37,640 nucleotides of DNA from a virus. Where the stretch lies: IMG/VR virus record IMGVR_UViG_3300021256_000065, one strand, 5' to 3'. The stretch's first letter is position 1. Each line of letters begins with the position of its first letter. Position numbers and translations under genes: made by a program. Below are positions 20,203-37,640 of this stretch, one piece after another. The notes beneath the pieces were generated by a model. That model was not told where the DNA came from and ran no database searches. It saw only the letters and a list, made by a program, of their open reading frames with translations.

Positions 20203-20294
20203 TTATCTGGTTTAAAGAATTTCTTTTTGATTTTTTTAAAAAAATATTATATAATATTTATATGATAAAGATAGAAAAAGAAAGGAAATTGCAT

Positions 20295-21209: not shown

Positions 21210-21301
21210 AATTTTTTTGGGCAGGGTTGTTTAAAAAAATCTACATAATTTTTAATAAAAATAGACTTCCAGGGAAGCTTATTGATTTTCTTATAAAATT
21301 T

Positions 21302-21335
21302 TGATATAATATATATGTAAGATAAAGAGAGAAGA
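21302..21335 (+). promoter_or_regulatory. extended -10 promoter (TGaTATAAT) plus ATGTAAGATAAAG leader, upstream of the tRNA cluster
   Basis: TTTTGATATAATATATATGTAAGATAAAGAG. Confidence 0.45.
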
Positions 21336-21436
21336 AAATAATAGTTCCTTGAAGAAGTCAGAAATTCCTTATGGAGGTTGAGCCAAGCGCCACTCTCTGT
21401 AAGGAAGATTAGAAAATTGATTTTATAAAAAATTTT

Positions 21437-21460
21437 TGATATAATATATATGGAAAATTA
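21437..21460 (+). promoter_or_regulatory. extended -10 promoter (TGaTATAAT)
   Basis: TTTTTGATATAAT. Confidence 0.4.
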
Positions 21461-21639
21461 ATAAAGACAGCAATACTGCAAAATTTCAATTATTCTAGTA
21501 TAAAAATAAATTTAATTGGGTTAAATGAAAATCGTCTTTAAAAAAGACTCCAGAAAGAGCTAAAGTTTATAGTTGTTCTAATTTGGTAAGCTGCCCTGCC
21601 ATGGGAATAGTAGAAAAGGAACTTGCTGTCTTGTAATAA

Positions 21640-21713
21640 TGCCAGATAGTTCAGTCGGTTAGAACGCGTGGCTGTTAACCACGATGTCGGGGGTTCAAGT
21701 CCCTCTCTGGCAG
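21640..21713 (+). tRNA. tRNA-Asn (anticodon GTT)
   Basis: TGCCAGA/TCTGGCA acceptor. Loop CTGTTAA. Confidence 0.75.
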
Positions 21714-21916
21714 TTCTCTCAGAAACGTCTGTATTAGTACGAAGGGGCGATAGAGTGTGCGCACTAGTAGGCGAGGCAGAAGACTGAGTAGGTACACGTG
21801 TGCGGGTTTTGGTGTATATTCCTTTGCAGTGCATCAAGGTTTCCCCGAAATTAAACCAAAATCCTCATGTGTTGGCGCATGTGGGGCTTGAGGTCTGACG
21901 CCAATCAGATCTTATT

Positions 21917-21995
21917 ACTTCGATGGTGGAATGGTAGACACGCTGGTCTTAGGAGCCAGTCCTTTGGGGTGAGGGTTCGAGTCCCTCTCGAAGTA
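21917..21995 (+). tRNA. tRNA-Leu (anticodon TAG), class II
   Basis: Loop CTTAGGA. Long variable arm. T-loop TTCGAGT. Confidence 0.7.
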
Positions 21996-22163
21996 CGTAG
22001 TGAGAGTTCTAAGTCACTTTAAAGAAAGAACAGCGTCGTGTTTTTATAATTTTTAATGCTCGGCTGAATATGTGAAGTAAAAAAATTAAAGAGAGGAAAG
22101 ACTCTTGTTAGATGTTCTTTAGTTGCAACCCTCTCGCTTCCCTAATGCGCATATGGGAAGATT

Positions 22164-22230
22164 TGGAACGAAGTTTTTCAGGTAAAAACACTCGGCAGAG
22201 AGACTGTGGGTTCAAATCCTATCGTTCCAT
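22164..22230 (+). pseudogene. degenerate tRNA-like element with truncated anticodon arm
   Basis: Acceptor TGGAACG/CGTTCCA and canonical GGTTCAAATCC T-loop. Only about 15 nt lie between the D and T arms. Confidence 0.3.
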
Positions 22231-22521
22231 TTTGTCAAAGTCCTTCATGGAGGGCAGACCTAAATTGATATTAATCATGCTTGATAAAGACCGTATTTCA
22301 GCAAAACACCCTTTTCTGAACATAGGAATATTGATAAGGATCGGCTAATAACTGACGGAGTAGATTTAGCAAGTGAGGGAATTTTGTAACTCCAAATATT
22401 AAACTAAAAACCTCATTACGGTCTTGCTTTAATTGAAAATTTTAAAAAAATATATTATAATATATATAGAAAGTTAAAAAGGAGTTGATTTTATGAAAGG
22501 TGATAAACCTCTTAAATATTA

Positions 22522-22594
22522 GCGCCATTAGCTCAGATGGAAGAGCACTTGACTTTTAATCAAGAAATCTCGGGTTCGAGTCCCGAATGGCGCA
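22522..22594 (+). tRNA. tRNA-Lys (anticodon TTT)
   Basis: GCGCCAT/ATGGCGC acceptor. Loop CTTTTAA. Confidence 0.8.
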
Positions 22595-22752
22595 TTTAGT
22601 GTGATCTATCCCTCGATACCACTATCCAAAAAGTGTAAAGCGTAATGGTAGGGAGTCGTCAAAACAGGATTTTAATATTTTTCTGAAGGCAGAGACGAAT
22701 TAAATCTAAACAGGCAGAGAAAAATATATCTTTTATAATAATTTAATAAAGG

Positions 22753-22941
22753 ATGGTGAAAATTATGATATATATTGTTCATTATTTTGATGATAAACAT
22801 AAGCAGCACATGACCTTTGTTAAAACTTATAAAGATGTTGAATTTATAAGAGATCGTTTTGGAAATATCACGGTCGAAACATTAAAAGTAAAAGAGTATC
22901 CATACATAGAATATAAAATGGCAATGGCGATTGAGCAATAG
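22753..22941 (+). CDS. small hypothetical protein (62 aa) inside the tRNA array
   Basis: RBS AAAGGATGG before the ATG. Confidence 0.4.
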   Translation: MVKIMIYIVHYFDDKHKQHMTFVKTYKDVEFIRDRFGNITVETLKVKEYPYIEYKMAMAIEQ

Positions 22942-23090
22942 TGTACATAAAACTCAAAGAGTCCACCACACTGCGGCGGTCGGTAGAGAGAGACCATAGC
23001 AGACTACCTTATGGAAGTCATGATCCGTGAATTTAGGCTATATAAACGTCTGGGGAGCCTACGAAATGGACAAAGCCATTTTTAATTTAA

Positions 23091-23174
23091 GGGTCGGTGG
23101 CAACAGCGGCGACTGCACCTGACTGTAAATCAGGCACACCGGAGACACCGAAGGTTCGAGTCCTTCCCGGCCCA
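23091..23174 (+). tRNA. tRNA-Tyr (anticodon GTA), class II
   Basis: Stem CCTGA/TCAGG with loop CTGTAAA. Long variable arm. Confidence 0.7.
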
Positions 23175-23179
23175 CTTAG

Positions 23180-23253
23180 GCGGCAATAGTGGAGTGGTTT
23201 AACACAGCGGTCTCTAAAACCGCGGATCCTGGGTTCGAATCCCAGTTGCCGTA
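23180..23253 (+). tRNA. amber suppressor tRNA (anticodon CTA, reads UAG)
   Basis: Canonical 74-nt cloverleaf. Acceptor GCGGCAA/TTGCCGT with G1-U72. D-loop AGTGGTTTA. Anticodon stem GCGGT/ACCGC with 7-nt loop CTCTAAA, anticodon at 23214-23216. T-arm CTGGG-TTCGAAT-CCCAG. Discriminator A. Confidence 0.85.
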
Positions 23254-23257
23254 TTAT

Positions 23258-23331
23258 CGCGGGGTAGAGCAGTTCGGTAGCTCGTCAGATTCATATTCTG
23301 AAGGTCGTGGGTTCAAATCCCACCCGCCGCA
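23258..23331 (+). tRNA. tRNA-Met or Ile2 (anticodon CAT)
   Basis: Begins CGCGGGG like an initiator tRNA. Loop TTCATAT. The acceptor 3' strand CCGCCGC needs one bulged nucleotide. Confidence 0.6.
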
Positions 23332-23669
23332 ATTCAAAGCACATATATCCGCGCAGATATATGTTTTGTGCTGAGAAGTTTGTTTTCTACTTTTGTTCTT
23401 AAAATCAAAGAGAGTGACTTTAGGTATTCAAGAAGAATATCTCCGTGCTTCTGGAGACAGCGGTCGTCAATGAGTTCATGTCCTTAATGAGCGATTCCCC
23501 TTCGAGGCGCAAAAAAGTAGAGGGGTTACGAGTCTACTAGCTACTATACTCGTGAGTAGCAAATATGCGGGGGCCACGATACCGTGTGGTGTAAAATCGG
23601 TAGCATACTGAATAATCAATTCAGAGATCTAAAGTAGCGTATTAGCACGGTGGGCGTGTAGCCGCATTT

Positions 23670-23740
23670 GCCTCTATCCGCTAATGGTAGGCGAAGTGAC
23701 CTGTAATCACTCAATCCCCGTTCGAATCGGGGTGGAGGCT
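23670..23740 (+). tRNA. tRNA-Thr (anticodon TGT)
   Basis: GCCTCTA/TGGAGGC acceptor. Loop CCTGTAA, with an unusual C33. Confidence 0.6.
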
Positions 23741-23762
23741 TAAAATCACTTACAGCAAAAAT

Positions 23763-23835
23763 TGTTCAGTAGTCAAAAGGTTAAGACATTAATTTTTAAG
23801 ATTAAGTAATGCTGGTTCGATTCCAGCCTGAGTTG
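23763..23835 (+). tRNA. tRNA-like gene with anticodon TTA (ochre-suppressor-like); functionality doubtful
   Basis: Canonical T-arm GCTGG-TTCGATT-CCAGC. Anticodon stem TTAAT/ATTAA with loop TTTTAAG. Acceptor has a 1-72 U-U mismatch. TAA clearly terminates genes in this window. Confidence 0.35.
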
Positions 23836-23849
23836 AGTGATTTGTTTTT

Positions 23850-23932
23850 GCGGGCGTGGCGTAATAGGTAGGCGCTAAGGTCTTAAAAACCTTTGGATCT
23901 AGTCCGTACGGGTTCAAGTCCCGTCGCCCGTA
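23850..23932 (+). tRNA. tRNA-Leu (anticodon TAA), class II
   Basis: Loop CTTAAAA. Long variable arm. GCGGGCG acceptor. Confidence 0.7.
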
Positions 23933-24108
23933 TTAATAATATATTTGGATGGTTTGGAATCCATCGCCGCACTTTATTATTGGTTGAGTATAAGTGCGAC
24001 ATAACCCAACCAAAGGGCAAATATATATTATATATTAAAAGTTTTGCAAAACTTATTAGAATTGCCCAATAGCAAATTATTAATGGAAGATGGGCATTAA
24101 TTACAATT

Positions 24109-24181
24109 TGATAGGTAGCTCAATTGGTAGAGCGGCGGCGCGTTAAGCCGTGTGTTGGAGATTCGAGTTCTCCCCTATCAA
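24109..24181 (+). tRNA. tRNA with GTT-type anticodon loop GCGTTAA (Asn-like, non-canonical C33)
   Basis: TGATAGG/CCTATCA acceptor. D-arm GCTC-AATTGGTA-GAGC. T-arm GGAGA-TTCGAGT-TCTCC. Confidence 0.5.
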
Positions 24182-24187
24182 CTATAT

Positions 24188-24272
24188 GGTGTAGTACCTC
24201 AGTGGGGAGGAGGCGCGGTCCTGAAAACCGTCGCTCCGAGAGGGGCTGAAGGTTCGAATCCTTCCTGCACCG
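24188..24272 (+). tRNA. tRNA-Ser (anticodon TGA), class II
   Basis: Anticodon arm GCGGT-CCTGAAA-ACCGT resembles the bacterial Ser(UGA) arm. Long variable arm. Confidence 0.6.
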
Positions 24273-24277
24273 CTATT

Positions 24278-24365
24278 GGATGGGTGGCAGAGTTGGTTGA
24301 ATGCGGCACCCTGCTAAGGTGTTAGTCACTTCGGTGGCTCGCGAGTTCGAATCTCGCCTCATCCG
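24278..24365 (+). tRNA. tRNA-Ser (anticodon GCT), class II
   Basis: Loop CTGCTAA. Long variable arm. T-arm GCGAG-TTCGAAT-CTCGC. Confidence 0.65.
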
Positions 24366-24402
24366 CATTTATAATAAAATATAATAGAAAAGGAATATTA
24401 AT

Positions 24403-24942
24403 ATGCAGGATATAAGATTAAAAATTTCCCCGCCTTGGGTAACTTATATTAATAAAATCTAGGCTCTTTTTGATGGAGATTCGCAGATTGATTGTAGTGT
24501 AAATTATAGTAGCAAAAAACCAGAAGTTGTACTTACTTGTAATAATGGTGATAAGGTTAATGCCTTAATGCAAATTCTTCCTAGGGAGGTTCCATTTGGA
24601 AATGTAACTCTTAATGTTGTAATTAATGGAGTTCCAAGCAATAGAGCATTTGTAAATAAAAAGGAGTTGTTTGAAGTTGTTTTTGAAAAGAATCCTGTAT
24701 TTGCATATGCGGTTGCCCCTGCTGAAGAAGGTGTCTTTTGGTTTGATATTGTTTATGTTGTCTTTAAAAATTGTGTTGTGCAATTCTTTAATGATAATTT
24801 AAATGATTGTCATGGTATAATTAGCACTCTTTATCAAAATATTGCGGAAGATATTTTAACAGGTGAAGCTGTTAATGGTGTATATTTTAATACAGATATT
24901 GAACAAGGTAAACTTGGTAAACCTCTTGGAGAGTGGCCATAA
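24403..24942 (+). CDS. hypothetical protein with 1 in-frame TAG, inside the tRNA array
   Basis: RBS AAAAGGAAT before the ATG. The frame is continuous with the ORF at 24568-24942 through the TAG at about 24460. Confidence 0.4.
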
Positions 24943-24961
24943 TTAAGATTTGTTTAATAAT

Positions 24962-25077
24962 AGTGCGGTGGCGGAACAGGTAAACGCATCGAAGGAGCGA
25001 GATGGTTAGGAACATATTATTGCGTGGAAAACCTCATGTAAAAACCATCATGTAAGGTGCAAATCCTTACCCGCACA
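24962..25077 (+). tRNA. tRNA-like structured RNA, paralog 1, with an insert of about 60 nt between the D and T arms
   Basis: Acceptor, D-arm GG-containing loop and T-arm TAAGG-TGCAAAT-CCTTA are shared with 25510-25615. Compensatory acceptor changes (C4-G69 versus U4-A69) support the fold. Confidence 0.45.
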
Positions 25078-25304
25078 ATTAAGGAGTGGTCTGGCAATAC
25101 CTCTATTATCATAGTGCAGATATGCATAAGTAATAACTTCAGATGAGTTATTACAAAAAGGCAGACCTTAGTATACAAAGACTCCAATATGAATATACGA
25201 AAACTCTGATTGGAAGTCAGTCACGGTTGATATATCGTGCAATGAAAACTGGTTTGCTAATGAGCATTAAAGTGCGGTCGAAGGCCAAGACTGCCGCCAG
25301 TCAT

Positions 25305-25394
25305 CGGAACGTAGCTCAATGGTAGAGCTTTGACGGTAAACAACAAGGGGTTCGTCACCTACTTGTGATGCACGTTCGAATCGTGCCGTTCCAA
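25305..25394 (+). tRNA. tRNA-like gene with C1xA72 mismatch and about 18 extra nt; anticodon unresolved
   Basis: Perfect D-arm GCTC-AATGGTA-GAGC and T-arm GCACG-TTCGAAT-CGTGC. Internal stem ACAAG/CTTGT with a 14-nt loop. Confidence 0.4.
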
Positions 25395-25509
25395 CGGCTG
25401 CCGAGAGCAAACGATCCGCTTGCAGGGAAGTTACCATAGAGTAGAGCTTCAGAAGAGTGCGGGATGAGCGGTTGGTGGAAACCTGAACCACCATTATAGA
25501 ATTTAGCAT

Positions 25510-25615
25510 TATGTGGTGGCGGAATAGGTAGACGCAGTGAGCGCCAAGCGGACATTGATTGTAGGGTAAGACCTGAGAGTCTTTGTCATGTAAGGTGCAA
25601 ATCCTTACCCACATA
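25510..25615 (+). tRNA. tRNA-like structured RNA, paralog 2
   Basis: See 24962-25077. Confidence 0.45.
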
Positions 25616-25674
25616 ATAAGCTGTATGGCTTACCATAGGGGGTCATAGCTCAGTTGGGAGAGCGCATCCCTTGC

Positions 25675-26152
25675 TTGAAAAACTTATATTTTTAAAATAT
25701 TATGGAAACTAAACAACTTGGAAATTTAACTTAGTTACAATGTATTACTCGTTTTTATGAATTAGGATATTCAGTATCAATACCTTATGGAGATAGTGAA
25801 AAATATGATATGATACTTGATATTAATGGAAAATTATATAAACTTCAAGCAAAACATGCTAAAGAATTTTATACAGAAGATAATCAATTATCATATATAA
25901 AGATAAAAACTTCTTGGCAATCTGGATATACTAAACAAAGTCAATATCATACAAATAAGTATTCTAAAAATGAAATTGATTTTTTTGTTACATACTTTCA
26001 AGGTAAAAATTATTTAATTCCAGTAGAAGAATGCTCAACTGAAAAAATATTAAGAATTTTACCTCCAAAAAATGGACAAATAAAAGGAATATCTTTTTTA
26101 GAAAACTATATTGATGAGGAGGTTATTAAAAAATTATAAGTATTATCAGGTA
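25675..26152 (+). mobile_element. intervening sequence in tRNA-Ala carrying a nuclease ORF (intron or homing-element candidate)
   Basis: Lies between the two tRNA halves and contains the ORF 25702/25810-26139. Confidence 0.5.
25702..26139 (+). CDS. PD-(D/E)XK / Hjc-like nuclease (homing-endonuclease candidate); the longer form needs TAG read-through
   Basis: ELGYSVSIPYGDSEKYDMILDINGKLYKLQAK fits an E...D...(D/E)xK nuclease core. The ATG at 25702 is in frame with the 25810 ORF through one TAG. Confidence 0.4.
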
Positions 26153-26330
26153 AAGGATGAGGTCGAGAGTTCGATTCTCTCTGGCTCCACCATTGCGGCA
26201 TCTGGAACTATGTATTTAGTTTTAACCACGCCAAAAGCAAGAAGGATTGGATTCGCGAATACAGATGAGACTTCTTGTAAAGACCCTCTGGCTTGATAGT
26301 TACTTCGAGAAGTATAGGAACTATCAATAG

Positions 26331-26406
26331 ACTCGATTAACTCAGCTGGGAGAGTGCGACTCTTACAAAGTCGAAGTCGTTGGTTCGAGTCCAACATCGA
26401 GTACCA
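26331..26406 (+). tRNA. tRNA-Val (anticodon TAC), CCA encoded
   Basis: ACTCGAT/ATCGAGT acceptor. Loop CTTACAA. T-arm GTTGG-TTCGAGT-CCAAC. Confidence 0.75.
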
Positions 26407-26530
26407 TCTGCGGGGCCGGCGTATAAATGGTCCCACCACCTGACTCGTAGTGAACACGGAACGCTGAAAGGTCTTGGGGAACTCCAGGGTAAGATACTCT
26501 GCAAGGGGAGGTTGTGCTCCCTACTTTTAA

Positions 26531-26602
26531 CGGGGCGTAGCGTAGCGGTTACGCGCTAGTTTTGGGAACTAGATTAGGCAGGTCCGACTCCTGTCGCCCC
26601 GA
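26531..26602 (+). tRNA. tRNA-Pro (anticodon TGG)
   Basis: C1-G72 and A73. Anticodon arm CTAGT-TTTGGGA-ACTAG. Confidence 0.65.
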
Positions 26603-26952
26603 TTGTATTTCAAAACCTGACGTTTAGCTTATTATAAAAATAAGTTTCGTACTATTAATAACAGAGATAGGAATTAAATAAACGTAAACCCATTGTAGCC
26701 CCCGACACGGAAACAATAAGAATAGAAGTTATTTGAAATGATATATAATAACTCTCGAAAAAAGTAGGTTAGCAATACTGAAAATTTTCTTGGATACAGA
26801 TAGGGAAATCGCAATGAAATGTCCAATAGTTGAAGGTCTATTGGAAGAACACTATAGTGTTTTAAAGTTTAGGTGTTCACGATATAACTTTTGGTAGGGT
26901 GATATAATGGATGGTTGGCCCCTAAATCTTTTAAAGCAAAGGAGTGTTTTTT

Positions 26953-27525
26953 ATGAAAAAAATAATATTATGTACTGCTTTTTCCTTATTTTTACTTAAC
27001 ACTGATGCGGTTGCCGCTACAAAAAAAGTCACCGCAAATTTAAATGTAAGAAAATAGCCAAATACAGAGTCTGAAATAGTTGGGTTATTACCAAAAGGGA
27101 AGATAATTAAAACTAAAAAGACTGAAAATTAGAATTGGGATAAAATTAAATATGAAGATGAAACTTGCTATGTTTGTAATACTTATTTAGAAAAAGTAAG
27201 TAAAGAATAGCTAGAAAAGATAGAAGAACTTTTATCCTTACGAGAAATTTCTTTAGAAGATTTTAGATATAGAGGTGTTATTAATTGGAGTGGATGGAAT
27301 TGGACATATTACTTAATGAGTCAATTCCCTGGATCAACTTCAACACCAGTAGAGGGAAGGTATGTTAATGATGAAGGTTTTGTTTGTGATAGTTAGGGAT
27401 ATATAATTTTAGCTTCAGTTGACTTATCTCCCTACACAATAGTAGATACACCATTTGGTTATCAAGGTAAGGTATATGATACTGGATGCCCATATGGAAC
27501 ACTTGATGTTTACGTTAATTGGTAA
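26953..27525 (+). CDS. secreted cell-wall-binding hydrolase-like protein (signal peptide, SH3b, 3D domain) with 4 in-frame TAG
   Basis: Signal peptide MKKIILCTAFSLFLLNTDAVAA. LNVR.xP...W.KIKY (SH3_3-like). GYIILASVD...GKVYDTGCPYGTLDVYV (3D-domain-like). Only TAG interrupts the frame. Ends TAA. Confidence 0.55.
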
Positions 27526-27574
27526 TTATTTGAAAAAATAAAAAAATTTTATTATAATATATATATAAAGAAAA

Positions 27575-27868
27575 GATGCTTACAGCAAATAAATATAATA
27601 CAAAAAAAACATTAACCTGGAAAAATTTTTTTAGTATACGCATCTTGAAAATAGGGGATTAATACAACAGTAGTATATGCGGCTTTGACCCGTAGTACCC
27701 AGGGGCAGCACCTGGATCCCCTGTTTCCTGTAGACACATACAGCAAAATATTATAAATTTTTAGGAAAATTTAGCAGAGAATATTAAGTGTCTAGTTTAA
27801 TCAGTTTCTTTACTCCCTTTCTTTTGATTTTGGGGCTAGACGTAATATGTCTAGCCCTATATTTTTTT
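27575..27868 (+). ncRNA. candidate non-coding RNA of about 290 nt between an A/T promoter and a strong terminator
   Basis: -10 TATAAT at about 27554. No ORF over 33 aa. GC-rich core CCCAGGGGCAGCACCTGGATCCCCTG. Terminator GGGCTAGAC/GTCTAGCCC plus T7 at 27833-27868. Confidence 0.3.
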
Positions 27869-27881
27869 GGAGAAAAATAAA

Positions 27882-28181
27882 ATGAGCAGATCTTATAAAA
27901 AAGCTCCTTATTATGGAGATAAAAAAAATAAAGAAACTAAAAGAATAGCAAATAAAGCTGTTAGAAATTATCTTAAAAATTTTGAACATGAATTGCCTAA
28001 AAGAGATTTTAGAAAAGTTTTTTGTTCTTGGGATATATGTGATTACGGTTGGCTGCAGCCTTGGGAAGAATATTGGAAAAATTGTTTAAGAAATTACAAA
28101 AGACATCCTGAATGGTATAAGCATCCGCCGAATAAAAAAGAAGAATATAGAAACTGGTATAAAACTTATAAAATGAAGTGA
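27882..28181 (+). CDS. small highly basic Lys/Tyr/Trp-rich protein (99 aa)
   Basis: RBS GGAGAAAAATAAA before the ATG. Ends TGA. No TAG. Confidence 0.5.
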   Translation: MSRSYKKAPYYGDKKNKETKRIANKAVRNYLKNFEHELPKRDFRKVFCSWDICDYGWLQPWEEYWKNCLRNYKRHPEWYKHPPNKKEEYRNWYKTYKMK

Positions 28182-28199
28182 TAAAAGGAGATAAAGGAT

Positions 28200-29711
28200 A
28201 TGAATACTTTTCTTAATCAGATGAAGAAAGATAATAATATTGATTATACAGAGAATGGCGGCGTGACCCATAAGTCTACGGAGTCTAAGGTTCTTGACAT
28301 GTTTGCGGTCGGCGGTGCATATAGAAACCGTTCTGATGAAGATGTTATTCTTCTCTTCAAAAACGCATTTGAAGAAGACCGCCTTCTGGCTATGAAATGC
28401 CTGTTTTATCTTCGCGATGTGCGCGGAGGACAGGGAGAAAGACGCTTCTTTAGAGTTGCCTTTCGCTGGCTTTGTGACGAATATCCTGAAGTTGCAAAGA
28501 AGAACCTTGACAATGTTAGTGAGTATGGTCGCTGGGATGATTTGATTTATGTTACGGAAGGTACTAGATGTCAAACCGCCGCATTCAATATCATCAGACA
28601 TCAGCTTGCTCTTGATACTCAGTGCAAAACGCCCTCCCTGCTTGCAAAGTGGCTTCCTTCTCAGAATGCTTCCAATGCAGAGACCAAGAGATTGGGACAT
28701 GTTTTGGCAAATTTCTTAGGGATGACCAGCCGCGAATATCGTAAGACCCTTTCTGTTCTTCGTGAACGCATTAATGTGCTTGAGCGTCTTATGAGCACTG
28801 GTAGATGGGATGAAATCGAATTTGATAAAATTCCTTCTAGAGCAGGTATTATTTATCGTAATGCCTTTGCTCGCCGCGATATTCTTGCCAAAAAGTATGA
28901 AGCTTTTGCCAAGAGTAAAGATACTAAGGTAAATGCAGATGCACTGTATCCGCACGATATTGCTCACAGAGCTTTTGAGATGCGTTATCATACTAACCTT
29001 GAAGATCCCACTCGTCTTATGCTTCAGAAGTATTGGGATAATCTCAAAGACTTCTATAACGGCAGAGAAGAGAATGGTATTGCAGTCGTTGATGTGTCTG
29101 GCTCCATGTCTGGAACTCCAATGGAAGCTGCAGTTTCTATGGGGGCTTACATCGCAGATAAAGCACATGGGCCTTTTGCGAATCACTTTATTACTTTTTC
29201 TTCCTCTCCTGAATTGGTAAGGTTTGAAGGAGTTGATATTGTTGATAAGTTTCGTCGTTGTGTTGGGGCAAACTGGGGTATGAATACCAACTTGCAGGCG
29301 GTATTTGATATGCTTCTGCATACTGCAATGAGAAAGAATGTAAAGGCTGAAGATATGCCGACTCGAATTTACATTTTTTCTGATATGGAGTTTGATCAGT
29401 GTGTGTCTTTTGATTGTACCCCTAAGCTTCACAGATGGGAAGGTTACCGTACTGTCAACTCTGTTGATGAGGTAAATTCCGATCTTGAGAAGATTAAAAA
29501 GGAATGGGCACGGTATGGATACAAAATGCCTCAGGTCATCTTTTGGAATCTCGATGCCCGTCAGAATCATATTCCAGCTATTGGAGAAGGGTTCAGTTAC
29601 GTGAGTGGTTTTTCGCCTTCTATGATTGACTGCATCTTGAGCGGCAAGGATGGCTGGGATTTGATGCTTGAAAAGCTCATGTCCAAACGTTATGCGGCAG
29701 TTGTTGCATAA
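28200..29711 (+). CDS. vWA-domain protein, DUF2828-like (503 aa)
   Basis: MIDAS-like VVDVSGSMSG. N-terminal TENGG...YLRDVRGGQGERRFFR, as in DUF2828. No internal TAG. GC content above that of its neighbours. Confidence 0.5.
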   Translation: MNTFLNQMKKDNNIDYTENGGVTHKSTESKVLDMFAVGGAYRNRSDEDVILLFKNAFEEDRLLAMKCLFYLRDVRGGQGERRFFRVAFRWLCDEYPEVAKKNLDNVSEYGRWDDLIYVTEGTRCQTAAFNIIRHQLALDTQCKTPSLLAKWLPSQNASNAETKRLGHVLANFLGMTSREYRKTLSVLRERINVLERLMSTGRWDEIEFDKIPSRAGIIYRNAFARRDILAKKYEAFAKSKDTKVNADALYPHDIAHRAFEMRYHTNLEDPTRLMLQKYWDNLKDFYNGREENGIAVVDVSGSMSGTPMEAAVSMGAYIADKAHGPFANHFITFSSSPELVRFEGVDIVDKFRRCVGANWGMNTNLQAVFDMLLHTAMRKNVKAEDMPTRIYIFSDMEFDQCVSFDCTPKLHRWEGYRTVNSVDEVNSDLEKIKKEWARYGYKMPQVIFWNLDARQNHIPAIGEGFSYVSGFSPSMIDCILSGKDGWDLMLEKLMSKRYAAVVA

Positions 29712-29721
29712 TTTTATATAT

Positions 29722-29757
29722 GAAGGATATGCAAAAATTGCATATCCTTCTTTTTTT
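29722..29757 (+). terminator. rho-independent terminator
   Basis: 12-bp stem GAAGGATATGCA/TGCATATCCTTC followed by T8. Confidence 0.7.
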
Positions 29758-29981
29758 GTGTGTAGAAAATGGATAAATGGATTTTTAAGGTCTACTTCAA
29801 TAAATCTCCAAAACTGTTCGGCGCGCAGACACTCGTATTTCAGAATTCAAAACGGCCTTTGGATTTTTTATTTTTACATTTTCATATTTAGCATTTTGGC
29901 CAAAAATAGATAACTACCATTATTAATTTTTAATATAAGATATAGGAATGAATATGCTAATCAAAAGGAGGGACTATAATT

Positions 29982-30461
29982 ATGATAGCATTACTTTAGC
30001 ACTATTCTTTATCTGATATATTAATCTTCTTGATTTTTCTTGCTCTAGGTATTAAAAGTTTAATTTCTTTTTTTGACTGGGTTTATGGATATATAAAAAG
30101 AGCTTTTAATATAGAATACTCTAAAAAGAGTGAAAAATAGCAAATTGAGTAGCGGTTACAGCAAGGTAGCGAAACCATAGCAATTTTAACCGCAAATCAA
30201 TAGGCAACTGATAAAGTTCTTTTAGATTTATCCGCAAAAATTGATATGTTAATTGATTCAGATAAAGATGCAATAAAGTCTTATATAACAAAAGAACATC
30301 ATCATTTCTGTTATTAGGTTGGATAGATAGACGACTTTAGTTTGGATTGTCTTGAAAAACGTTATCAACATTATACAGATGAAGGCGGAAATTCATTTAT
30401 TGAACACTTTATGTGTGATTTAAGAGCTTTGCCTAAATAGGGTTCTTTTAATGGCAACTAA
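29982..30461 (+). CDS. small membrane protein (holin-like candidate) with about 7 in-frame TAG
   Basis: RBS AAAAGGAGGG. N-terminal TM ILIFLIFLALGIKSLISFF. Frame closed only by TAA at 30459-30461. Confidence 0.35.
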
Positions 30462-30491
30462 TAACAATGGAGAAAAAAGGAGAATTAAAAA

Positions 30492-32369
30492 ATGGCATTG
30501 ATGTTAAACACTTTATATCCACCTATTATGATGGATGTAATCCCTGGTTTTATAAGAACATCAACATGTAGAATATATTTTTCTATATCCGATTATAATT
30601 CTGCCAAAGACATAGCAAATGTTCAAGTTGCATTAACAAATGTAAAAACTAACACTTCTGCATTGAATACTGATTTGTACCCCGCAGAAATTAAATTAAC
30701 TGAATTACTTTATGATGACCAAAAGTAGGACGATTATTGTTATTATATAACAATAAGTCCTGCTGATTTAGCGGGCGGGGAATTTTTATTAAATCAATAT
30801 TATAAAATTCAATTACGCTTTACATCAAAAGATGCAGATAGTGTTAGTTTAACTGGAGTTCAACAAATTGCTACTTGGTTAAATAATAATCTTATGTTCT
30901 TTTCTTAGTGGTCACGTGCGGGAATCATTAGAGGGATTTCAAGACCAACGCTTTATATTGATTATTTAGATGATGAGGATGAAGAAGAGGAAGAAGAAAG
31001 TGAAAATATTTCATTATCCGCCCCATTATCAAAAATTACTGGTAGATTAACTTTTGCAGATGAAGGCGAATTAGACTATTTAGCTTCTTATAATGTTAAA
31101 GTTTATTTAAGTAAGCAAGATAATAAATTAATTTTTGATAGTGGTATTCAACATCCAATAGAAGAAAATGAGATTGATTGTAACTTATTATGTGATTTAT
31201 AGGATTAGCGGCTGTATATGATAAAAATTAGTTATACTACAAACTATGCTTATAGTAAATAGGAAAACTATATAATACAAGTGCGAGTCGAGAGCCAAGA
31301 CTTAAATCCATTCAATCTAACAATCACTCCAACAAGAAATGAAGAGGATGGTTATATAAATCTTCATATTACGATGGATAAAACTAAAGATTTTTCTGAT
31401 AAACAATTATTAATTAGAAGAATATCTTCAAAAGATAATTTCTTAATATGGGAAAATTTATATGCTATAGATTAGAGCTTTTCCACATTTGATTGGCAAG
31501 ACTTATCTGTAGAAAGCGGGATTTGGTATAAATATGCGTTATATGTAGTAGATTTAAATAAAACTATTTTATATAACCCTATAGAAACAGATCCAATATT
31601 GTGCATTTTTGAAGATATATTTTTAGTAAGTGATAATATTCAATTAAGATTACAATTTAATCCTTCCATAACAAGTTTTAAATATAATACAACTGAATCT
31701 CAACAAGTTACTTTAGGAGGAAAATTTCCTTATATTAGAAGAAATGGAAATAATTATTATAGAACCTTTTCTATTGGCGGTCTTATTAGTTCTTTAATGG
31801 ATGAAACTGATTGGTATGATTCTTATATTCATCCGCCGCATCCAATATAGGGAGAAGAAGAACAGGAAGAAGAAGAAATCACTTTACCACATATCAGATT
31901 TACTTCTAAATAGGATAAATATAAAGATTCTTATGATTTATATCAACAATATGAATCAGATAAAAATATTTCTAATTATCTTAATCCAATATATGAAAGA
32001 TTCTTTAGAGAAACTGTATATGATTTCTTTTATAAAAATAGTGTAAAATTATTTAAATCTCCAACAGAAGGTAATATATTAGTTAAATTAACCAATATTA
32101 ATTTTGAGCCTCAAGCTCAATTAGGACGCGTATTATATTCATTTACCGCAACCACAGTTTAGATAGATGAACCAACTTTTGAAAATTATAAAAAATATAA
32201 AATCTTTCCTGATGATATATTTGAATATGTTACTGAATCTCCTGCTTTAGAGATCGAATTTGGTACAGCCACAATGGTGCTGGTTATAAATGCAAATGGT
32301 GCAAGTCAAAATGGAAATCAGAATTGGGCATTGCATTTAGAGCCTTATCCTATTAAAGGAGGAGGTTAA
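30492..32369 (+). CDS. large virion structural protein (tail or baseplate-like, about 625 aa) with about 9 in-frame TAG
   Basis: RBS AAAAAGGAGAA. The ORF fragments 30492, 31281 and 31599 share one frame and are separated only by TAG. Ends TAA at 32367-32369. Confidence 0.55.
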
Positions 32370-32371
32370 TA

Positions 32372-34396
32372 ATGCAAACATATCCATATTTAAATGATTT
32401 AGCTTTTTTAAGAGAACTTGATCTATCAAAAGTAAAAGAACAATTTGTGAGAATTAACGTTTTGTCTTTTAAAGATGAAAAACCAATAGAACAAATTGAA
32501 GGAGATGTGGTAAGCGGCAATATTACAATAGATGGAAATTCAGCGATGCGGCGAACCGCAAATTTATCTATTGTGGTAAAAAAAGATGAATATTCTAATA
32601 GAGATATTAGAAAAATTTTAACTATAAATAAAAAAGTATAGTTATTAATAGGATTTACTAATACAACTAATAAATATGAACAATATCCAATTTTATGGTT
32701 CCCGCAAGGAATTTATGTAATTATTACTCCTAATATTATTTATAATAATAATGGTATCAATATTTCATTGACATTACATGATAAAATGGCCTTGCTAAAT
32801 GGGGAATGCGGCGGAACTCTACCTGCATCTATTACATTTACTGAAATAGAAGATGTTGATGAGAATGGCGAAAGACAAATTTCTAATCCTACTATATATC
32901 AAATTGTACAAGAATTAGTTAATCATTTTGGCGGATAGCAGCTTGGAAAAATAATTATTGAACTTGATAAAAAAATAAAAAAGGTAATGCGGTGGACAGG
33001 TTCAACGCCGCTTTACCTATATCAAGAAGCACTTCCAGACGGTACAATGTATAGTAGTTTTAGTACAAATGAAAATTAGTTAAGAAGGCAAGGAGAAGGG
33101 ACAATTCAAGAATTTTAGTACGGATAGGATATAGGTTACGTTTTGACTGATTTTATCTATCCACAATAGCTAACTAATAACCCTGGAGAGACCATTGTAA
33201 GTGTCTTAGACAAAATTAAGAATTGGCTTGGAAATTACGAATATTTTTATGATATTAATGGTAATTTCAGATTCCAAGAGATAAAGAATTATTTGAATAA
33301 AACATATGCAACATTTTTAATTAATGAAATAAATTCAAATAATTACTTAACTAATTATGCAAATGGAAAATCTGTTTATACTTTTGAAGATTCTGATATT
33401 ATTCAATCATATTCAAATTCCCCGCAATATCAACAAATAAAAAATGATTTTGTTGTTTGGGGTAAAAGAACTACAACAGAAGGAAAATAGATTCCTATTC
33501 GTTATCATTTAGCTATTGATAAAAAGCCTGCAGTCGGGAATTAGTATAAAGTATTTTTCTATACTGATCCCGATGATAACATTTTAAAAGCTAAAAGACC
33601 TTTAGAATTTGCTACAAGAAATTAGTTTCCAGAAACCGGAGATGTATGTCAATATTATTATGCGGCAGACACTGGTTTTATATATAAATGGGACGCGAGT
33701 GTACAAAATTATGCCACAACCCCATATATAATTGAAACAATAGAAGCAAAAGATTATAGGACTTAGCTCTATATGTCTGGTGTTGCTAGTTAGCCGTTTG
33801 GTTTAGATAGTAATTATTATTACACAGAATTAAAAAATGAATGGCCTAAACTATATGATATGCGGCAAGGAAAATTCTTTGATGAAATACTAGATCAGCC
33901 TAGTAACATGGATTTCTTTTTAGATTTTATAGATACTTCTACCGCTATTTCAGAATTTAGCATAGAAAATATTGGTAGACGTACCCTTACAATATCAAAT
34001 GATGCAATAAATTGTATTTTTTAGCCTGATAACCCTGATATAGTTATTATTGAAGCAAACAGCGAAGGCGCGGATGATCTTCGAGAATAGTGTTAGCATA
34101 GACGACAAGAATATTCTCAAGTAACATCAGACATTTATTCACAGCTAGTTACTGGCGGAGTTTTAAGATCTGCTTATGAAGAAATAAGAACAGAACTCTA
34201 TCAATATACTGATTATAATGAACAAGTTACATTAACTACTTTACCAATTTATTATCTTGAACCTAATGTACGGATAACAATTAAAAATTAGTAGAGCGGA
34301 ATTGATGGAGATTACATGATAAAAACAATTTCATTACCATTAGATGTTAATGGAATGATGAATTTATCTTGTACAAAAGCACTTGAAAGAATTTAA
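32372..34396 (+). CDS. large virion structural protein (about 675 aa) with more than 12 in-frame TAG, including a tandem TAG TAG
   Basis: RBS AAAGGAGGAGG. Fragments 32372 and 33293 are in frame. Ends TAA near 34394. Confidence 0.5.
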
Positions 34397-34399
34397 CAA

Positions 34400-34446
34400 A
34401 AAAAAATAATGGCGATGATATTTTTATATCATCGCCATTTTTTTAT
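34400..34446. terminator. bidirectional rho-independent terminator between convergent genes
   Basis: 13-bp stem AATGGCGATGATA/TATCATCGCCATT with A-run and T-run flanks. Confidence 0.65.
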
Positions 34447-36470
34447 GGTTTTAATCGGATAATATATCCAACTTTATAGTTAGGCCACGAAAGTGGACCA
34501 ATCCATTTTACAAAGTGAGCACCTTCACCTTTTTCTTTGCAGAAGGCATGTCCAGAATCAAATGACAAACCATTACCAAAGTAAATACATGTATGATTGA
34601 TAGTTACAAAAGTAAGAATGTCACCAGGGCAAAGTTTTCCTTCATTCATAAGCTGCTTAGGAGTTTTATTACCTACTTTAATTAAGTCTGCATACTTGCG
34701 GAGATCAGCCTACGCGTGACTATTTAACCAGCGGATGCCGCCTCCTTTTTGCCCATACCAGCTACATGCGGATGCGGGAAGTCCAGACTATTTCATTGCA
34801 AAACCAACGCCGCCCATGCAATTTGTATATAGTTTATTAGCTTTTCTTGTTTTCCAGAATGTACTTTCACTTACATGTCCACTGTTGTAATATCTCCAGT
34901 CCTTACCAGCTTTTATGTCGTCTACTAACCATTGATTTAACCGAGCACATGCCGCAAGTAATTTTTGCACTCTATTTAATTTTGGTTTATATACAACTGT
35001 TTTTGGATTTTTTAAATCATAAACTCTAAATCCCCAATTTTGATTAGCCTTGTTTTTAGCATTACTTAAGTATTGATAAGCACCAAGTTGATATTGAGAT
35101 TCAGACCATCTTCTACGAACAACATATCTATCTATTGGTGTTGCGGCGGGAGTCATTGTTACGGGCGCTTGGACTGGTGCCGCAACCGCTTTCACCTATG
35201 GATAAATTTGATTACCATTCTAATCATATGCTTTTAACCCTTTAGCTTTTGCTCTTGCTATTGCGTTAGCTTTAATTTCATAAGCATTATCCTGATTAAT
35301 ATATTTTCCATTTTTATAGTCTTGTGCAACTCTATACCAGACAGTTTTTGGCTGCGGGACTGGTGCCATCGCCCCCGCTTCTACATCTAATTTTGCTAAA
35401 TTATTTTCTTTTATAATACGAAGTACCTTCTCTTCATAATTAGGATCAGTGCAATATCCCTATGGATTGCTAGCTGTCCCAGTTCCAATTCTAATTGCAT
35501 GAATAACCGCCCCAGGATCTGTCATACCTTTGACGCGATTATATTTATAACCTTTATTATTTTTTACATGTAAAAGAAACATCTAATAATCTTCAATACA
35601 GTTTTTATAGTCTTTATAAACTCTAAAATTATCAGGCTTATGAATTAATTTACCATTAACATATTCAGGAGTTATCTTAGAAAAAACAGTGCCATCCCAA
35701 ACTGTATAATTAGACCAGCTGCCATTGATTAAATCAGCTTTCATTCCAAGAAGATTATTTCGTTTTGTTAATTCAATAGCATCAGATCCCAATCCATAAC
35801 CATTCTAGAGGCAGCACTGTGCGGCGACCACTGATGGTAAAATTTTTGTTTGTTTATAAAGATCTACACAAATTTTAGATACTTTATTAATAAAATCTTC
35901 TTTGCTTTGAGGAATACCAGAAGCTGCGGTTGTTGACGGTGTTGTACCTGCGTTTCCGCCCTTCACCCTCTCAAGAAATTCATTCCAAGTCCAAGATGTT
36001 TTATATTTATTATTATGAACATATGGAGCTGGGCAGACTTTATTTACAATATCATAATGTCTTAATACATGGTCTATTGGGATTTTTAAGTCCTTCATTA
36101 ATTTTTGGACAAGCCATACTGCGGCTTCTTGTGTTTCTTTTGTAAAATACCAATATGGATCACTTGCTAGTCCTTTGTTACCATCACAGTGACAACATAA
36201 TTCAATGCTAATTGTATTAGCATTTCTTGCGTATGGATGCTTTTGAGCATATATGCCAGCAGTACCAACTGCCCACACAATTGCATCATGGGAGCATCTT
36301 TGGAAAATTGTTCCATCCCAATAAATTGTATAGTGGGCACCAGTACCATTTTTTGATAATTCATAATTTTGACCATCTACTCCTAAATAGTGAATGGCTA
36401 TATATTCATGTGTATTTCCAAATTTTGGCACATATACTTCTGAAATTTTATTTACTATTTTATATGCCAT
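34443..36470 (-). CDS. multidomain endolysin: N-acetylmuramoyl-L-alanine amidase (Amidase_2/PGRP), linker, NlpC/P60 or CHAP-like peptidase; 3 in-frame TAG
   Basis: RBS GGAGAAAAAAT before the ATG at 36470. HYLGVDGQ...AHYTIYWDGTIFQ...NANTISIELC are amidase_2 motifs. C-terminal GDILTF...HTCIYFGNG...DSGHA. Four ORF fragments share one frame, split by TAG at 35805, 35583 and 34788. Ends TAA at 34443. Confidence 0.65.
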
Positions 36471-36484
36471 ATTTTTTCTCCAAT

Positions 36485-36504
36485 GGGCGGGGCAAACCCC
36501 GCCT
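36485..36504 (-). other. GC hairpin between esterase and endolysin genes (attenuator or stability element)
   Basis: GGGCGGGG-CAAA-CCCCGCC. No U-run. Confidence 0.3.
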
Positions 36505-36568
36505 AAAAGGACCATCCTGAAGGACGGTCCTGGTTATTAATTGTCTAAATGAATTTTTAAGATATTTA

Positions 36569-37640
36569 TTAATTTGTTTTCGAATAATATAGATTATTGT
36601 ATTTTGGGTCATACATGGTAGGTTCTTTTCCTGTAGTGACATAATAAGCAGCATTAATTCCTGCGTATTCACCCATTTCATTATAGCCAGTTTGATAAAA
36701 ATGAAATAAGTCTTTCATTAGACCCCTACTTTTAAAACTAGCCAATGTCGTTGTAACCATCACAATATCTTTATTTTCTTTAGCAAGTTCTGTTTGTTTT
36801 TCGATTACACGGCTATAATCTGTGCCTGTGCCATTATATTCTCCGATTCTGCAAAGAAAACATTTTTCAACACCAACAGCTTTTAATGCAGTAAACATTG
36901 TTTCAAAACTGGTTATATATGCTTCATCATCAGTAATTGTTGATGTATCTCCTTCGTGCTCACCTTGGCACCAAACTAAAAAGATATGTCGAATTGTATA
37001 CCCTCTCGATACAGCAAAATTTTTAGCAGAATTAAGTCTGCTAATAGCATCGTTTAAATATGGTGTATTCGGTTGCCATTCATTAATTCCAGAACCGCCT
37101 TTTGAAGCAGATACGGCAAGTACAGGAATATTACCATTGTTAGAATAATAAGCATTAACAAAGGCTGTGACCATCGAACCAGTTTTTAAATTACCATCAT
37201 CTATTCCATTACTGTTATTTTCTTTTACCCCAAAAGGTTCAATAATGGTGTCCATATATAAAGGGGCAGATATTGCTTTATATTCAAGTCCTGCATTAGG
37301 TAAAATAACGGGTGCGCTATCAGGCCATTGCTAATTTGTTATACCTCGTCCTGCCATATTTGATTGACCTGCAAACAAACATAAGTCAAAAACATTTGTT
37401 AATTTTATATTCGATATATCGCTGGTCAATGCTGCGCTGTGTTCACTTGGGTCGATGTTACTATTGTTGGTTTTTCTAATTTGAAAATAAAATGCGGTAC
37501 CCTTCTTAATATATACATCCGAAACCCAACCCTCAATACTAATTAAATCGGTTTTAGCAACTGGTGCTTCCGTGGAGGTAACTTTCATAACCGATAACTC
37601 ATATCCACTGTTAGCAGATAGATGCAAATCATAATCAACA
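36569..37640 (-). CDS. SGNH/SASA-family carbohydrate esterase (sialate-O-acetylesterase-like) with N-terminal beta-rich domain; at least 1 in-frame TAG; 5' end beyond the window
   Basis: GQSNMAGRG motif, then TAG at 37331-37333, then the in-frame continuation QWPDSAPV...LVWCQGEHEGD. TAA at 36569-36571. The frame stays open to the window edge. Confidence 0.55.

Follow-up and report, generated by a model that had tools for sequence, protein, structure and literature searches.

TAG is a sense codon in the viral DNA analysed here (IMG/VR record IMGVR_UViG_3300021256_000065; 37,640 nucleotides, referred to as the window). The DNA comes from an alternative-code phage, and the codon is concentrated in its late genes for structure and lysis. 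Comparison with related sequences indicates that TAG in this phage specifies glutamate and not glutamine. The window falls within a monophyletic group of phages, roughly 130-145 kb in size, in which TAG corresponds to Glu (the TAG~Glu clade); positions 24000-37640 gave no match to GenBank phages by megablast.

Open reading frames were called by accepting just TAA and TGA as stops, which gave 56 in-frame TAG codons across 12 genes, each terminated by TAA or TGA. The late block (24403-37640) contained 46 of the 56 in eight genes (46 TAG in 3624 late codons), and the three consecutive tail genes at 29982-34396 had 32 TAG and zero TAA or TGA among 1458 in-frame codons (P about 2e-57 at the off-frame TAA plus TGA rate of 8.6% of codons). 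The longest TAG-tolerant ORF had 696 codons; the longest found in 200 shuffles had 367. Full-length homologs, like the Pfam domains given below, ran uninterrupted over the TAGs, and 46/46 late TAGs were kept in a relative 94-99% identical to the window. Terminators in the window were TAA (33) and TGA (14) in 47 genes and were conserved in a close relative. TAA was dropped as an additional sense codon, because no in-frame TAA was found in the late genes and the TAA stops are conserved.

On the plus strand, the late block comprised a gene without predicted function (24403..24942; ORF call, one TAG, TAA end), a PD-(D/E)XK nuclease-like gene (25702..26139; PDDEXK_5 at residues 1-136, E 5.5e-23, spanning the single TAG at codon 11), a secreted SH3b-domain protein (26953..27525; four TAG, two of them spanned by SH3_3 at residues 29-80), a small membrane-anchored protein with a strong Shine-Dalgarno sequence ahead of its ATG (29982..30461; seven TAG, ending TAA-TAA), a large tail/baseplate-like protein (30492..32369; nine TAG, homologs in 59 loci) and a large tail protein (32372..34396; 16 TAG, phrog_32343 / phrog_1887, 62 related loci aligned over residues 1-674). 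By domain search, a TROVE/Ro-like protein (28200..29711, plus strand; DUF2828 and DUF7788) was also identified, with zero TAG despite its late-block position. A lysin with Amidase_2 and GH73 glucosaminidase domains, assigned by Pfam and homologs (34443..36515; seven TAG, Glucosaminidase at residues 201-358 spanning TAGs), and a SASA/SGNH esterase tail-fibre-like protein (36569..37640; one TAG, spanned by SASA at residues 84-324; phrog tail fibre) were encoded on the minus strand, the latter running off the window so that its N-terminus lies beyond the window end. The earlier note, which had not placed these last two genes (34443-36515, 36569-37640) on the minus strand, had proposed TAG reassignment in late structural and lysis genes, and this was borne out by long ORFs ending at TAA or TGA with homologs and domains across the TAGs. 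It had also considered that segments after TAG might be junk or separate genes; sequence 3' of each TAG was homologous to relatives, and domains span the TAGs. Its Amidase_2, SASA/SGNH and SH3_3 domains were recovered, whereas no match to its 3D domain reached E<0.01.

The same note had compared the pattern to phages that recode only late genes, and this held in part: in addition to the 46/56 late TAGs, 30/37 genes before 24403 had no in-frame TAG, seven genes sharing 14 TAG, on a rough map of early genes from a home-made caller (68% coverage), and off-frame TAG in this region made up 1.3% of codons. However, at least four genes outside the late module contained internal TAG, namely 18486..19274 (plus strand; four TAG, TGA end) and three small minus-strand genes at 10069..10494 (three TAG), 10627..10815 (one TAG) and 10812..11048 (two TAG), all from ORF calls, with relatives for 18486..19274 and 10069..10494. 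The genes 10069-10494 and 10627-10815 had been listed previously and were confirmed, 10812-11048 is new, and a third candidate (8329-8589) was withdrawn, its TAG being the terminal codon. A phage sigma-70 family factor (20262..21209, plus strand; Pfam Sigma70 r1.2, r2, r3 and r4, E 3e-22 to 4e-14) had zero in-frame TAG and was located directly 5' of a tRNA array.

It had further been held that the amino acid could not be read from the sequence, with Gln as the usual precedent. The tally of homologous residues at TAG was run here, and alignment with relatives favoured Glu over Gln: 31 TAG positions in four genes scored +52.2 bits for E, -2.7 for D and -11.2 for Q, and a reference restricted to 27 TAG-free relatives gave E +32.4 and Q -15.3. 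In the tail gene 32372-34396, Glu was the majority residue in 12/16 TAG columns, and the aligned sense cells at these columns were 43% Glu and about 4.5% Gln. In 30492-32369, TAG codon 139 was aligned with Glu in 47/55 relatives and codon 557 in 54/58. Among nine TAG columns with one residue conserved at 70% or more, that residue was Glu in eight. Outside the late block, the first TAG of 10069-10494 was GAA in the 94% identical relative L069 (related loci are numbered with L), and in 18486-19274 codons 52 and 210 were mostly GAA in relatives, codon 14 being TAG in most relatives of the TAG~Glu clade. About half of the TAG columns were variable and little informative; other TAGs fell on Gly- or Thr-majority columns, codon 115 of 29982-30461 on a well-conserved Trp (W in 29/41), and a few on Gln-majority columns (e.g. 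codon 112 of the same gene). The scoring method can distinguish Glu from Gln, because the same test picked out Gln in a sister clade (L026, Q +32.6 / E -21.2; L043, Q +23.2); it also returned Trp for TGA-recoded relatives with 31-fold enrichment. Phass-1, as a published Gln control, was too distant in the tail gene, with only 5 usable columns. Table 15 (TAG = Gln) does not describe the window on these scores; of NCBI table 30, the assignment TAG = Glu would fit, and TAA = Glu fails, since TAA ends 33/47 genes.

One TAG of the lysin (35805..35807, minus strand; residue 222 when the ATG at 36470 is taken as the start) was located at the GH73 catalytic Glu. This codon was aligned with the E of FlgJ 2ZYC (AQAALETGWG) and the E of 7QFU (AQAIVESGWG), and with Ala in 3K3T, which we take to be the E-to-A active-site mutant. 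The column was Glu in 116/120 homologs, and four further TAGs of the seven in the lysin were also Glu-majority. A genome-collection scan with the lysin for the host gave one irrelevant match. The host is probably a member of the Firmicutes (Clostridia); Lachnospiraceae would be a guess taken solely from the names of the lysin homologs.

Relatives of the window include a sister clade with TAG~Gln (L026, L027, L036, L043-L046, L049), relatives with TGA~Trp (L029-L031, L034, L035, L038, L041, L055) and standard-code relatives (L015-L021, L024 and others). The sister clades have homologous collinear tail genes, 35-57% identical to those of the window, with recoding in the same genes, but either another stop codon is recoded or TAG has a different meaning. 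Gln content was 3-4% in the TAG~Glu clade (not depleted) versus 1.3-2.7% in the TAG~Gln clade (depleted). Within the TAG~Glu clade, GAG dropped as TAG climbed, from TAG 1 / GAG 12 in L002 to TAG 19 / GAG 0 in L010.

The tRNA array (20132..26602, plus strand; 16 ARAGORN calls and one Rfam-only call), flanked by the sigma gene and the structural genes, includes an amber suppressor with anticodon CUA, the presumed TAG reader (23180..23253, plus strand; ARAGORN, Rfam tRNA 68.3 bits), which the earlier note did not contain, and a tRNA of ochre-suppressor type with anticodon UUA (23762..23836, plus strand; ARAGORN, Rfam 51.3 bits). The tRNA(CUA) folds into a clean cloverleaf with G1.U72, C2-G71, A73, a 3-bp D stem and an 11-nt D loop. 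Homologous CUA tRNAs occupy the same site just before tRNA-Met in L069, L066, L068, L071, L073-L077 and L022, and in L065-L068 the CUA tRNA lies directly 3' of tRNA-Glu(UUC) and tRNA-Glu(CUC). With home-made isotype HMMs, which are noisy, the CUA tRNAs of L065, L068 and L077 scored best with the tRNA-Glu profile, and the tRNA(CUA) of the window with Ile/Ser/Lys, its nearest neighbours being Trp/Ile; its whole-tRNA pairwise identities were all 0.65-0.74, too noisy for isotype assignment, and its anticodon loop (CUCUAAA) resembles that of tRNA-Trp. The 11-nt D loop is common to the CUA tRNAs and the tRNA-Glu(UUC) genes of the phage family, as are, under manual register assignment, A73 and the G.U pair that opens the acceptor stem. 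The tRNA-Gln genes of the family had G73 in 9/14 and mostly U-A, A-U or U.G as first pair; acceptor stems were read from ARAGORN bracket output, whose register shifts by one base where an 8-bp acceptor helix is possible. The tRNA(UUA) of the window looks Gln-like by isotype profiles, and its copy was identical in L001 and L069. When IMG/VR was scanned by exact pattern for the scaffold of the CUA tRNA, the anticodon being left free, only two already-known contigs and no non-suppressor relatives came up, and no suppressor tRNA was found in the TAG~Gln-clade loci examined. Scanning the approximately 20 largest window proteins revealed neither a release factor nor an aminoacyl-tRNA synthetase, and a low-threshold Rfam search of the tRNA region gave no ribozyme or Y RNA above threshold. 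A per-locus TAG tally around the sigma gene was uninformative, yielding mostly TAG-free early genes and spurious ORFs; L081, which has a Gln-like CUA tRNA, was linked to no TAG meaning by this tally.

If TAG were a true stop, the pieces would be pseudogene fragments or separate small genes, much as table 11 splits the region into many short ORFs and GenBank annotates the Phass-1 homolog as five fragments; the statistical absence of TAA and TGA, the homology and domains continuing over every TAG and the retention of all 46 late TAGs in the 94-99% identical relative leave this reading virtually no probability. It is also extremely unlikely that the phage follows a host with sense TAG. Some phages do have the same altered code as their host (examples are Mycoplasma phages and code 25 phages), but here 30/37 genes before 24403 avoid TAG in spite of its off-frame frequency, a tRNA(CUA) is encoded by the phage itself, the code of close relatives is standard, TGA = Trp or TAG = Gln, and no bacterium with TAG = Glu was found in the searched literature.

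Ordinary code 15, with TAG = Gln as in crAss-like phages, Lak and Phass-1 and the Glu signal an alignment artefact, would agree with the assignment reported in phages, with the public pipelines that already translate the proteins with Q (P0001, P0121), with the few Gln-majority TAG columns such as codon 112 and with the Gln-like tRNA(UUA). We regard it as very improbable, as Q scored far below E in a test that does identify Gln in the sister clade, the GH73 enzyme is expected to be inactivated by Gln in place of its catalytic Glu, the Gln content of the window clade is not depleted, and many database Q at TAG columns are themselves translated TAGs. A mixture, in which tRNA(CUA) inserts mostly Glu and a second amino acid enters through tRNA(UUA) by wobble or through mischarged tRNA(CUA), could make the late proteins statistical mixtures. 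The two suppressor-type tRNAs, both kept in the closest relative, the TAGs at columns where Trp, Gly or Thr is conserved and the ambiguous isotype of the window tRNA(CUA) are consistent with such decoding, which nevertheless appears unlikely: Glu occupies eight of the nine strongly conserved TAG columns, the active-site residue among them, and a UUA tRNA would also read TAA, the main and conserved terminator (33/47 genes).

We therefore retain decoding of TAG as Glu and consider it highly likely that the window derives from a phage of ~130 kb, probably with a Firmicutes (Clostridia) host, which uses a split code with TAG = Glu in late genes and its own tRNA(CUA). An unmodified host would translate most genes before 24403, the sigma factor included, since these are TAG-free, and the tail and lysis genes together with a few others would use TAG as sense and terminate at TAA or TGA alone. 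The TAG reader, tRNA(CUA) 23180-23253, would be supplied by the phage from the array that is flanked by the sigma gene and the late genes, and full-length late proteins would be made only after this tRNA outcompetes host release factor 1, so that their production would be tied to the late phase. Bacterial GluRS reads the anticodon including position 36, and Glu charging of a CUA tRNA is not expected by default. The host glutamyl-tRNA synthetase presumably charges tRNA(CUA) with Glu; in a host with the indirect Gln pathway, this tRNA may also evade GatCAB because it has no U1-A72 pair and a long D loop. The tRNA(CUA) may have been derived from the neighbouring tRNA-Glu genes, with TAG gradually replacing GAG, and recoding may serve to time late expression, a role already suggested for other recoded phages.

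Phages of code 15 (TAG to Gln) include crAss-like phages, Lak, Garnet/Topaz and Phass-1 (bioRxiv 10.1101/2021.08.26.457843; PMC9523058; PMC10607447). They share with the window the concentration of TAG in structural and lysis genes, a phage tRNA(CUA), retained TAA/TGA stops, early genes in standard code and a low-GC genome, Phass-1 being distantly related (tail proteins 30.9% identical), but differ in reading Gln instead of Glu. For phages with a code unlike that of the host, Borges et al. reported TAG to Gln and TGA to Trp as the only changes observed (bioRxiv 10.1101/2021.08.26.457843), and described an 'Agate' clade of about 127-154 kb from cattle, pig and tortoise with standard, TGA- and TAG-recoded genomes mixed. 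Compared by description, this clade resembles that of the window in size, animal-gut/rumen-type sources and code switches between close relatives; code 15 was assumed for the published TAG-recoded Agate genomes. In the searched literature, TAG to Glu was found for ciliates only and for no virus or prokaryote: peritrichs reassign UAA and UAG to Glu (NCBI table 30), and an uncultured ciliate has UAA = Lys and UAG = Glu, as cited in PMC11687900. These codes share UAG = Glu with the window phage, but are eukaryotic and genome-wide with altered eRF1, and peritrichs reassign TAA too, whereas in the window phage TAA is the main stop and recoding covers part of a viral genome in a standard-code host.

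Judged from sequence comparison, it is likely that a rumen/gut phage clade of roughly 130-145 kb uses a code with TAG = Glu and TAA/TGA stops, undescribed for a virus or prokaryote in the searched literature, switched on for late genes by a tRNA(CUA) probably from an adjacent tRNA-Glu, with TAG progressively replacing GAG, and that table-15 pipelines mistranslate all members. Taken jointly with this and held equally likely, the meaning of one codon would have diverged inside a single phage family, with TAG = Glu in one clade and Gln in its sister. The working rule of the field allows phages only two reassignments, TAG to Gln and TGA to Trp, and is usually rationalised by GlnRS and TrpRS being easily hijacked; a Glu-reading amber codon would break it, would mean that host GluRS or another factor can serve a CUA anticodon, and would show that a single codon can switch meaning between sister phage clades. 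The tRNA(CUA) would be a candidate natural part for Glu-inserting amber suppression. Table-15 gene callers and databases would put Gln for Glu, including at the lysin catalytic residue, and annotation, structure prediction and enzyme mining from such phages would consequently be systematically wrong; public protein sets translate the TAG of this phage as Gln (P0001, P0121).

Open reading frames were defined on the window with TAG treated as sense and only TAA and TGA as stops, and long TAG-tolerant frames were found exactly at the positions where the earlier note had placed its recoded genes. Within the 37,640 bp (GC content, 35.5%), 56 in-frame TAG codons were distributed over 12 genes, all of which (12/12) terminated with TAA or TGA: on the plus strand, 18486-19274 (4 TAG), 24403-24942 (1), 25702-26139 (1), 26953-27525 (4), 29982-30461 (7), 30492-32369 (9), and 32372-34396 (16), and on the minus strand, 34443-36515 (7), 36569-37640 (1; extending past the window edge), and the small genes 10069-10494 (3), 10627-10815 (1), and 10812-11048 (2). 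Strands had been left unspecified in that note, and 34443-36515 and 36569-37640 were assigned to the minus strand. The three consecutive tail genes contained 32 TAG and neither TAA nor TGA over 1458 codons; from the proportion of TAA and TGA among their off-frame codons (8.6%), the probability of this absence was calculated as P ~2e-57. The longest TAG-tolerant frame reached 696 codons, a length that no shuffled sequence approached (n = 200; maximum, 367), and chance was therefore excluded. PDDEXK_5, SH3_3, Glucosaminidase, and SASA domains (Pfam) each spanned TAGs, and PHROG matches of the window proteins fell into tail, tail-fibre, and endolysin families, while a 3D domain that had been proposed was not detected. 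TAG is thus a sense codon in these genes. The observation of the earlier note was confirmed, and its reading as TAG reassignment in late genes, a system of an already known kind, was supported.

A rough gene map comprised 47 genes, 37 of them before 24403. In-frame TAG was absent from 30 of these 37 genes, even though TAG accounted for 1.3% of their off-frame codons; avoidance of TAG was seen in most early genes. Genes in the map terminated with TAA (33) or TGA (14) and in no clear case with TAG, and these terminators were unchanged in a relative of 94-99% identity. Several late genes finished with TAA-TAA. The possible internal TAG of 8329-8589 proved to be the terminal codon. TAG near the 3′ end was also seen in the small open reading frames 10812-11048 (minus), 14246-14470 (plus), and 22753-22950 (plus), and in L069, a locus of the closest relative, TAA precedes the second TAG of 10812-11048 by one codon. 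In 10812-11048 the 3′-proximal TAG may be a true stop, and because of these observations some TAGs outside the late block are possibly still terminators.

With the 674-aa tail protein as the query, related phages were retrieved from IMG/VR as 62 loci (L001-L062; contigs up to ~150 kb), the closest being IMGVR_UViG_3300021399_000007 (133,873 bp, 96% identity in the tail protein). Of the homologous tail genes at these loci, 35 contained in-frame TAG and 8 in-frame TGA, and the other 19 had neither codon in frame. The amino acid had been considered unreadable from the sequence, but alignment to these relatives yielded Glu. A codon-aware tail-gene alignment had Glu as the majority residue in 12 of the 16 TAG columns (for example 51/61, 46/61, and 45/61), and Glu made up 43% of the aligned sense cells at TAG columns, with Gln at ~4.5%. 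For 31 TAG positions located in four genes, the log-odds, calculated with near-identical loci left out, were +52.2 bits for Glu, -2.7 for Asp, -11.2 for Gln, and below -28 for the others; with 27 entirely TAG-free relatives as the reference, the window gave +32.4 for Glu and -15.3 for Gln. Codons 52 and 210 of 18486-19274 were GAA in most relatives, and one window TAG in 10069-10494 was GAA in a 94% identical relative. Among nine TAG columns with one residue conserved at 70% or more, eight were Glu and one was Trp. The latter, codon 115 of 29982-30461, was the sole strongly conserved TAG column other than Glu; it is TAG in the window and L001 (a locus of the closest relative) and Trp in 29 of 41 relatives, in the motif VGWIDDF.

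The identical procedure returned Trp for the TGA-recoded relatives (31-fold enrichment), and for a further set of relatives recoded at TAG it returned Gln. In the latter, the tail gene gave Gln +32.6 and Glu -21.2 for L026 and Gln +16.8 for L049, and the adjacent gene upstream of the tail gene gave Gln +23.2 for L043 and +18.6 for L027. The same upstream gene pointed to Glu in the clade of the window (L032, +26.6; L022, +20.0), and in the window itself Glu scored +2.1 against -17.5 for Gln. Near-identical copies of the lysin (P0001) and of the 18486-19274 protein (P0121) in public ENA clusters show Q at every TAG, even at the GH73 catalytic Glu of P0001, and the database Q at TAG columns is partly an artefact, because translation with table 15 writes TAG as Q. 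Gln content was depleted to 1.3-2.7% in the clade with TAG as Gln, compared with ~3.3% in standard-code relatives, and showed no depletion (3-4%) in the clade of the window. In the tail gene of the clade with TAG as Glu (L002-L039), the GAG count dropped with increasing TAG, from 1 TAG and 12 GAG in L002 through 16 and 3 in the window to 19 and 0 in L010, as though GAG were being displaced by TAG in late genes. As judged entirely by comparison of sequences, TAG is very probably read mainly as Glu.

The lysin (34443-36515, minus) provides an independent, functional argument for Glu. Its TAG at residue 222 (35805-35807, minus; counted from the ATG at 36470) aligned with the Glu that is catalytic in GH73 enzymes, corresponding to E of AQAALETGWG in FlgJ (2ZYC), E of AQAIVESGWG in 7QFU, and Ala in 3K3T, which we take to be an E-to-A active-site mutant. 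This column contained Glu in 116 of 120 database homologs. Four further columns of the seven lysin TAGs had a Glu majority (87, 58, 48, and 62 sequences), and the two remaining ones fell within a variable linker. Lysin homologs carried names from Parablautia and Marvinbryantia, which suggests a host of Lachnospiraceae type; genome scanning confirmed no host.

Four code states, namely standard, TGA as Trp, TAG as Gln, and TAG as Glu, were distinguished within one phage family (L001-L062), and the many TAGs of L058/L059 and L061/L062 matched neither Glu nor Gln. In the tail-protein tree, built by neighbour joining, every genome with TAG as Glu was placed in a single clade, whose sister group consisted of the main genomes with TAG as Gln (L026, L027, L036, L046, and L049) and standard-code genomes; the clade with TGA as Trp branched next, and L043-L045 and L060, with TAG as Gln, branched much deeper. 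The tree indicates rather than proves this pattern, because it was built from one protein by a distance method. Even the nearest GenBank records were distant, namely an unannotated human-gut phage (37.7% identity), Phass-1 (30.9%; filed under 'Caudoviricetes code 15 clade'), and Enterococcus phages of ~140 kb (26%).

A well-formed tRNA(CUA) gene at 23180-23253 (plus; ARAGORN, and Rfam at 68.3 bits), overlooked in the earlier note, was located in an array of ~17 tRNA genes (20132-26602). The array begins directly after a complete, TAG-free phage gene for a sigma-70-family factor (20262-21209, plus; regions 1.2, 2, 3, and 4) and stops shortly before the recoded genes. A strong terminator was present at 29722-29750, ahead of the tail genes; before 29982, no good promoter of sigma-70 type was found. 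Among the ~20 largest window proteins, neither a release factor nor an aminoacyl-tRNA synthetase was detected (Pfam, PHROGs). The tRNA order is Tyr, CUA, Met, Thr, UUA, Leu in the window and Glu(UUC), Glu(CUC), CUA, Met, Thr, Leu in L065-L068, and the tRNA-Tyr of the window stands at the place that is taken by a tRNA-Asp in L001/L069. The CUA tRNAs of the related loci L065, L068, and L077 scored highest with the profile of the family's tRNA-Glu genes, and in both the D loop and the variable loop (4 nt) they matched tRNA-Glu(UUC). An 11-nt D loop was present in 9 of 11 CUA tRNAs, and elsewhere in 3 of 10 tRNA-Glu, two tRNA-Gln, one tRNA-Ile, and one tRNA-Met. With a manually set acceptor register, the CUA tRNAs had A73 and a G.U pair at 1-72 or 2-71, matching the family's tRNA-Glu genes; in ARAGORN's own register, A73 was assigned to just 4 of the 11 CUA tRNAs. 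The family's tRNA-Gln genes had G73 in 9 of 14 and mostly U-A, A-U, or U.G as the first pair. The window copy had Trp and Ile tRNAs as nearest neighbours (0.69 identity) and Ile, Ser, and Lys as best profiles. Its body was identical to that of L001 1026-1101 and L069 12838-12913, whereas five acceptor pairs differed, all compensated (GCGGCAA/TTGCCGT in the window, CGCCCGA/TCGGGTG in L001/L069), with flanking DNA ~98% identical. The tRNA evidence is compatible with Glu identity and is non-decisive, because the window copy resists typing by sequence and these five acceptor pairs differ.

Under the published model of recoded phages, late proteins would be incomplete until the suppressor tRNA is present, and recoding would thereby gate late and lytic functions. 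From general knowledge of tRNA identity, the CUA tRNA would be charged by the host GluRS. Some hosts make Gln-tRNA by means of a non-discriminating GluRS and GatCAB. In such hosts, a suppressor with a long D loop and without U1-A72 would remain Glu-tRNA and the Glu on a suppressor resembling tRNA-Gln would be turned into Gln, which would explain two TAG meanings in sister clades.

In phages differing in code from their hosts, Borges et al. report having observed TAG read as Gln and TGA read as Trp and no other change, tables 15 and 4 were the only ones considered by Cook et al., and the published assignment for Phass-1 is Gln. A preprint on theta ribozymes predicted 30% of phage suppressor tRNAs as non-Gln (Trp, Ile, and Tyr), without a matching code. 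In the literature searched, UAG as Glu was reported in ciliates only; the full-text search, with partial journal coverage that makes an earlier report possible, returned no TAG as Glu in a phage or prokaryote. A Glu meaning would therefore represent a variant of phage recoding not known before.

An ochre-suppressor-type tRNA(UUA) gene was found at 23762-23836 (plus; Rfam, 51.3 bits; AU-rich, with a U1.U72 mismatch), with an identical copy in L001/L069; despite it, TAA is the main terminator and never occurs in frame in late genes. A low-threshold Rfam search gave a short tRNA-like sequence at 22164-22230 (plus; 37.9 bits) without an ARAGORN call. At 25305-25394 (plus; Rfam tRNA, 42.1 bits), a further tRNA-like element retained intact acceptor, D, and T arms, with 36 nt replacing the anticodon arm. 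The TROVE/Ro-like gene at 28200-29711 (plus; DUF2828 and DUF7788, phrog_850), 2.8 kb downstream, contains no TAG though inside the recoded block and differs in codon usage from the neighbouring genes; the element is possibly its Y-RNA-like partner.
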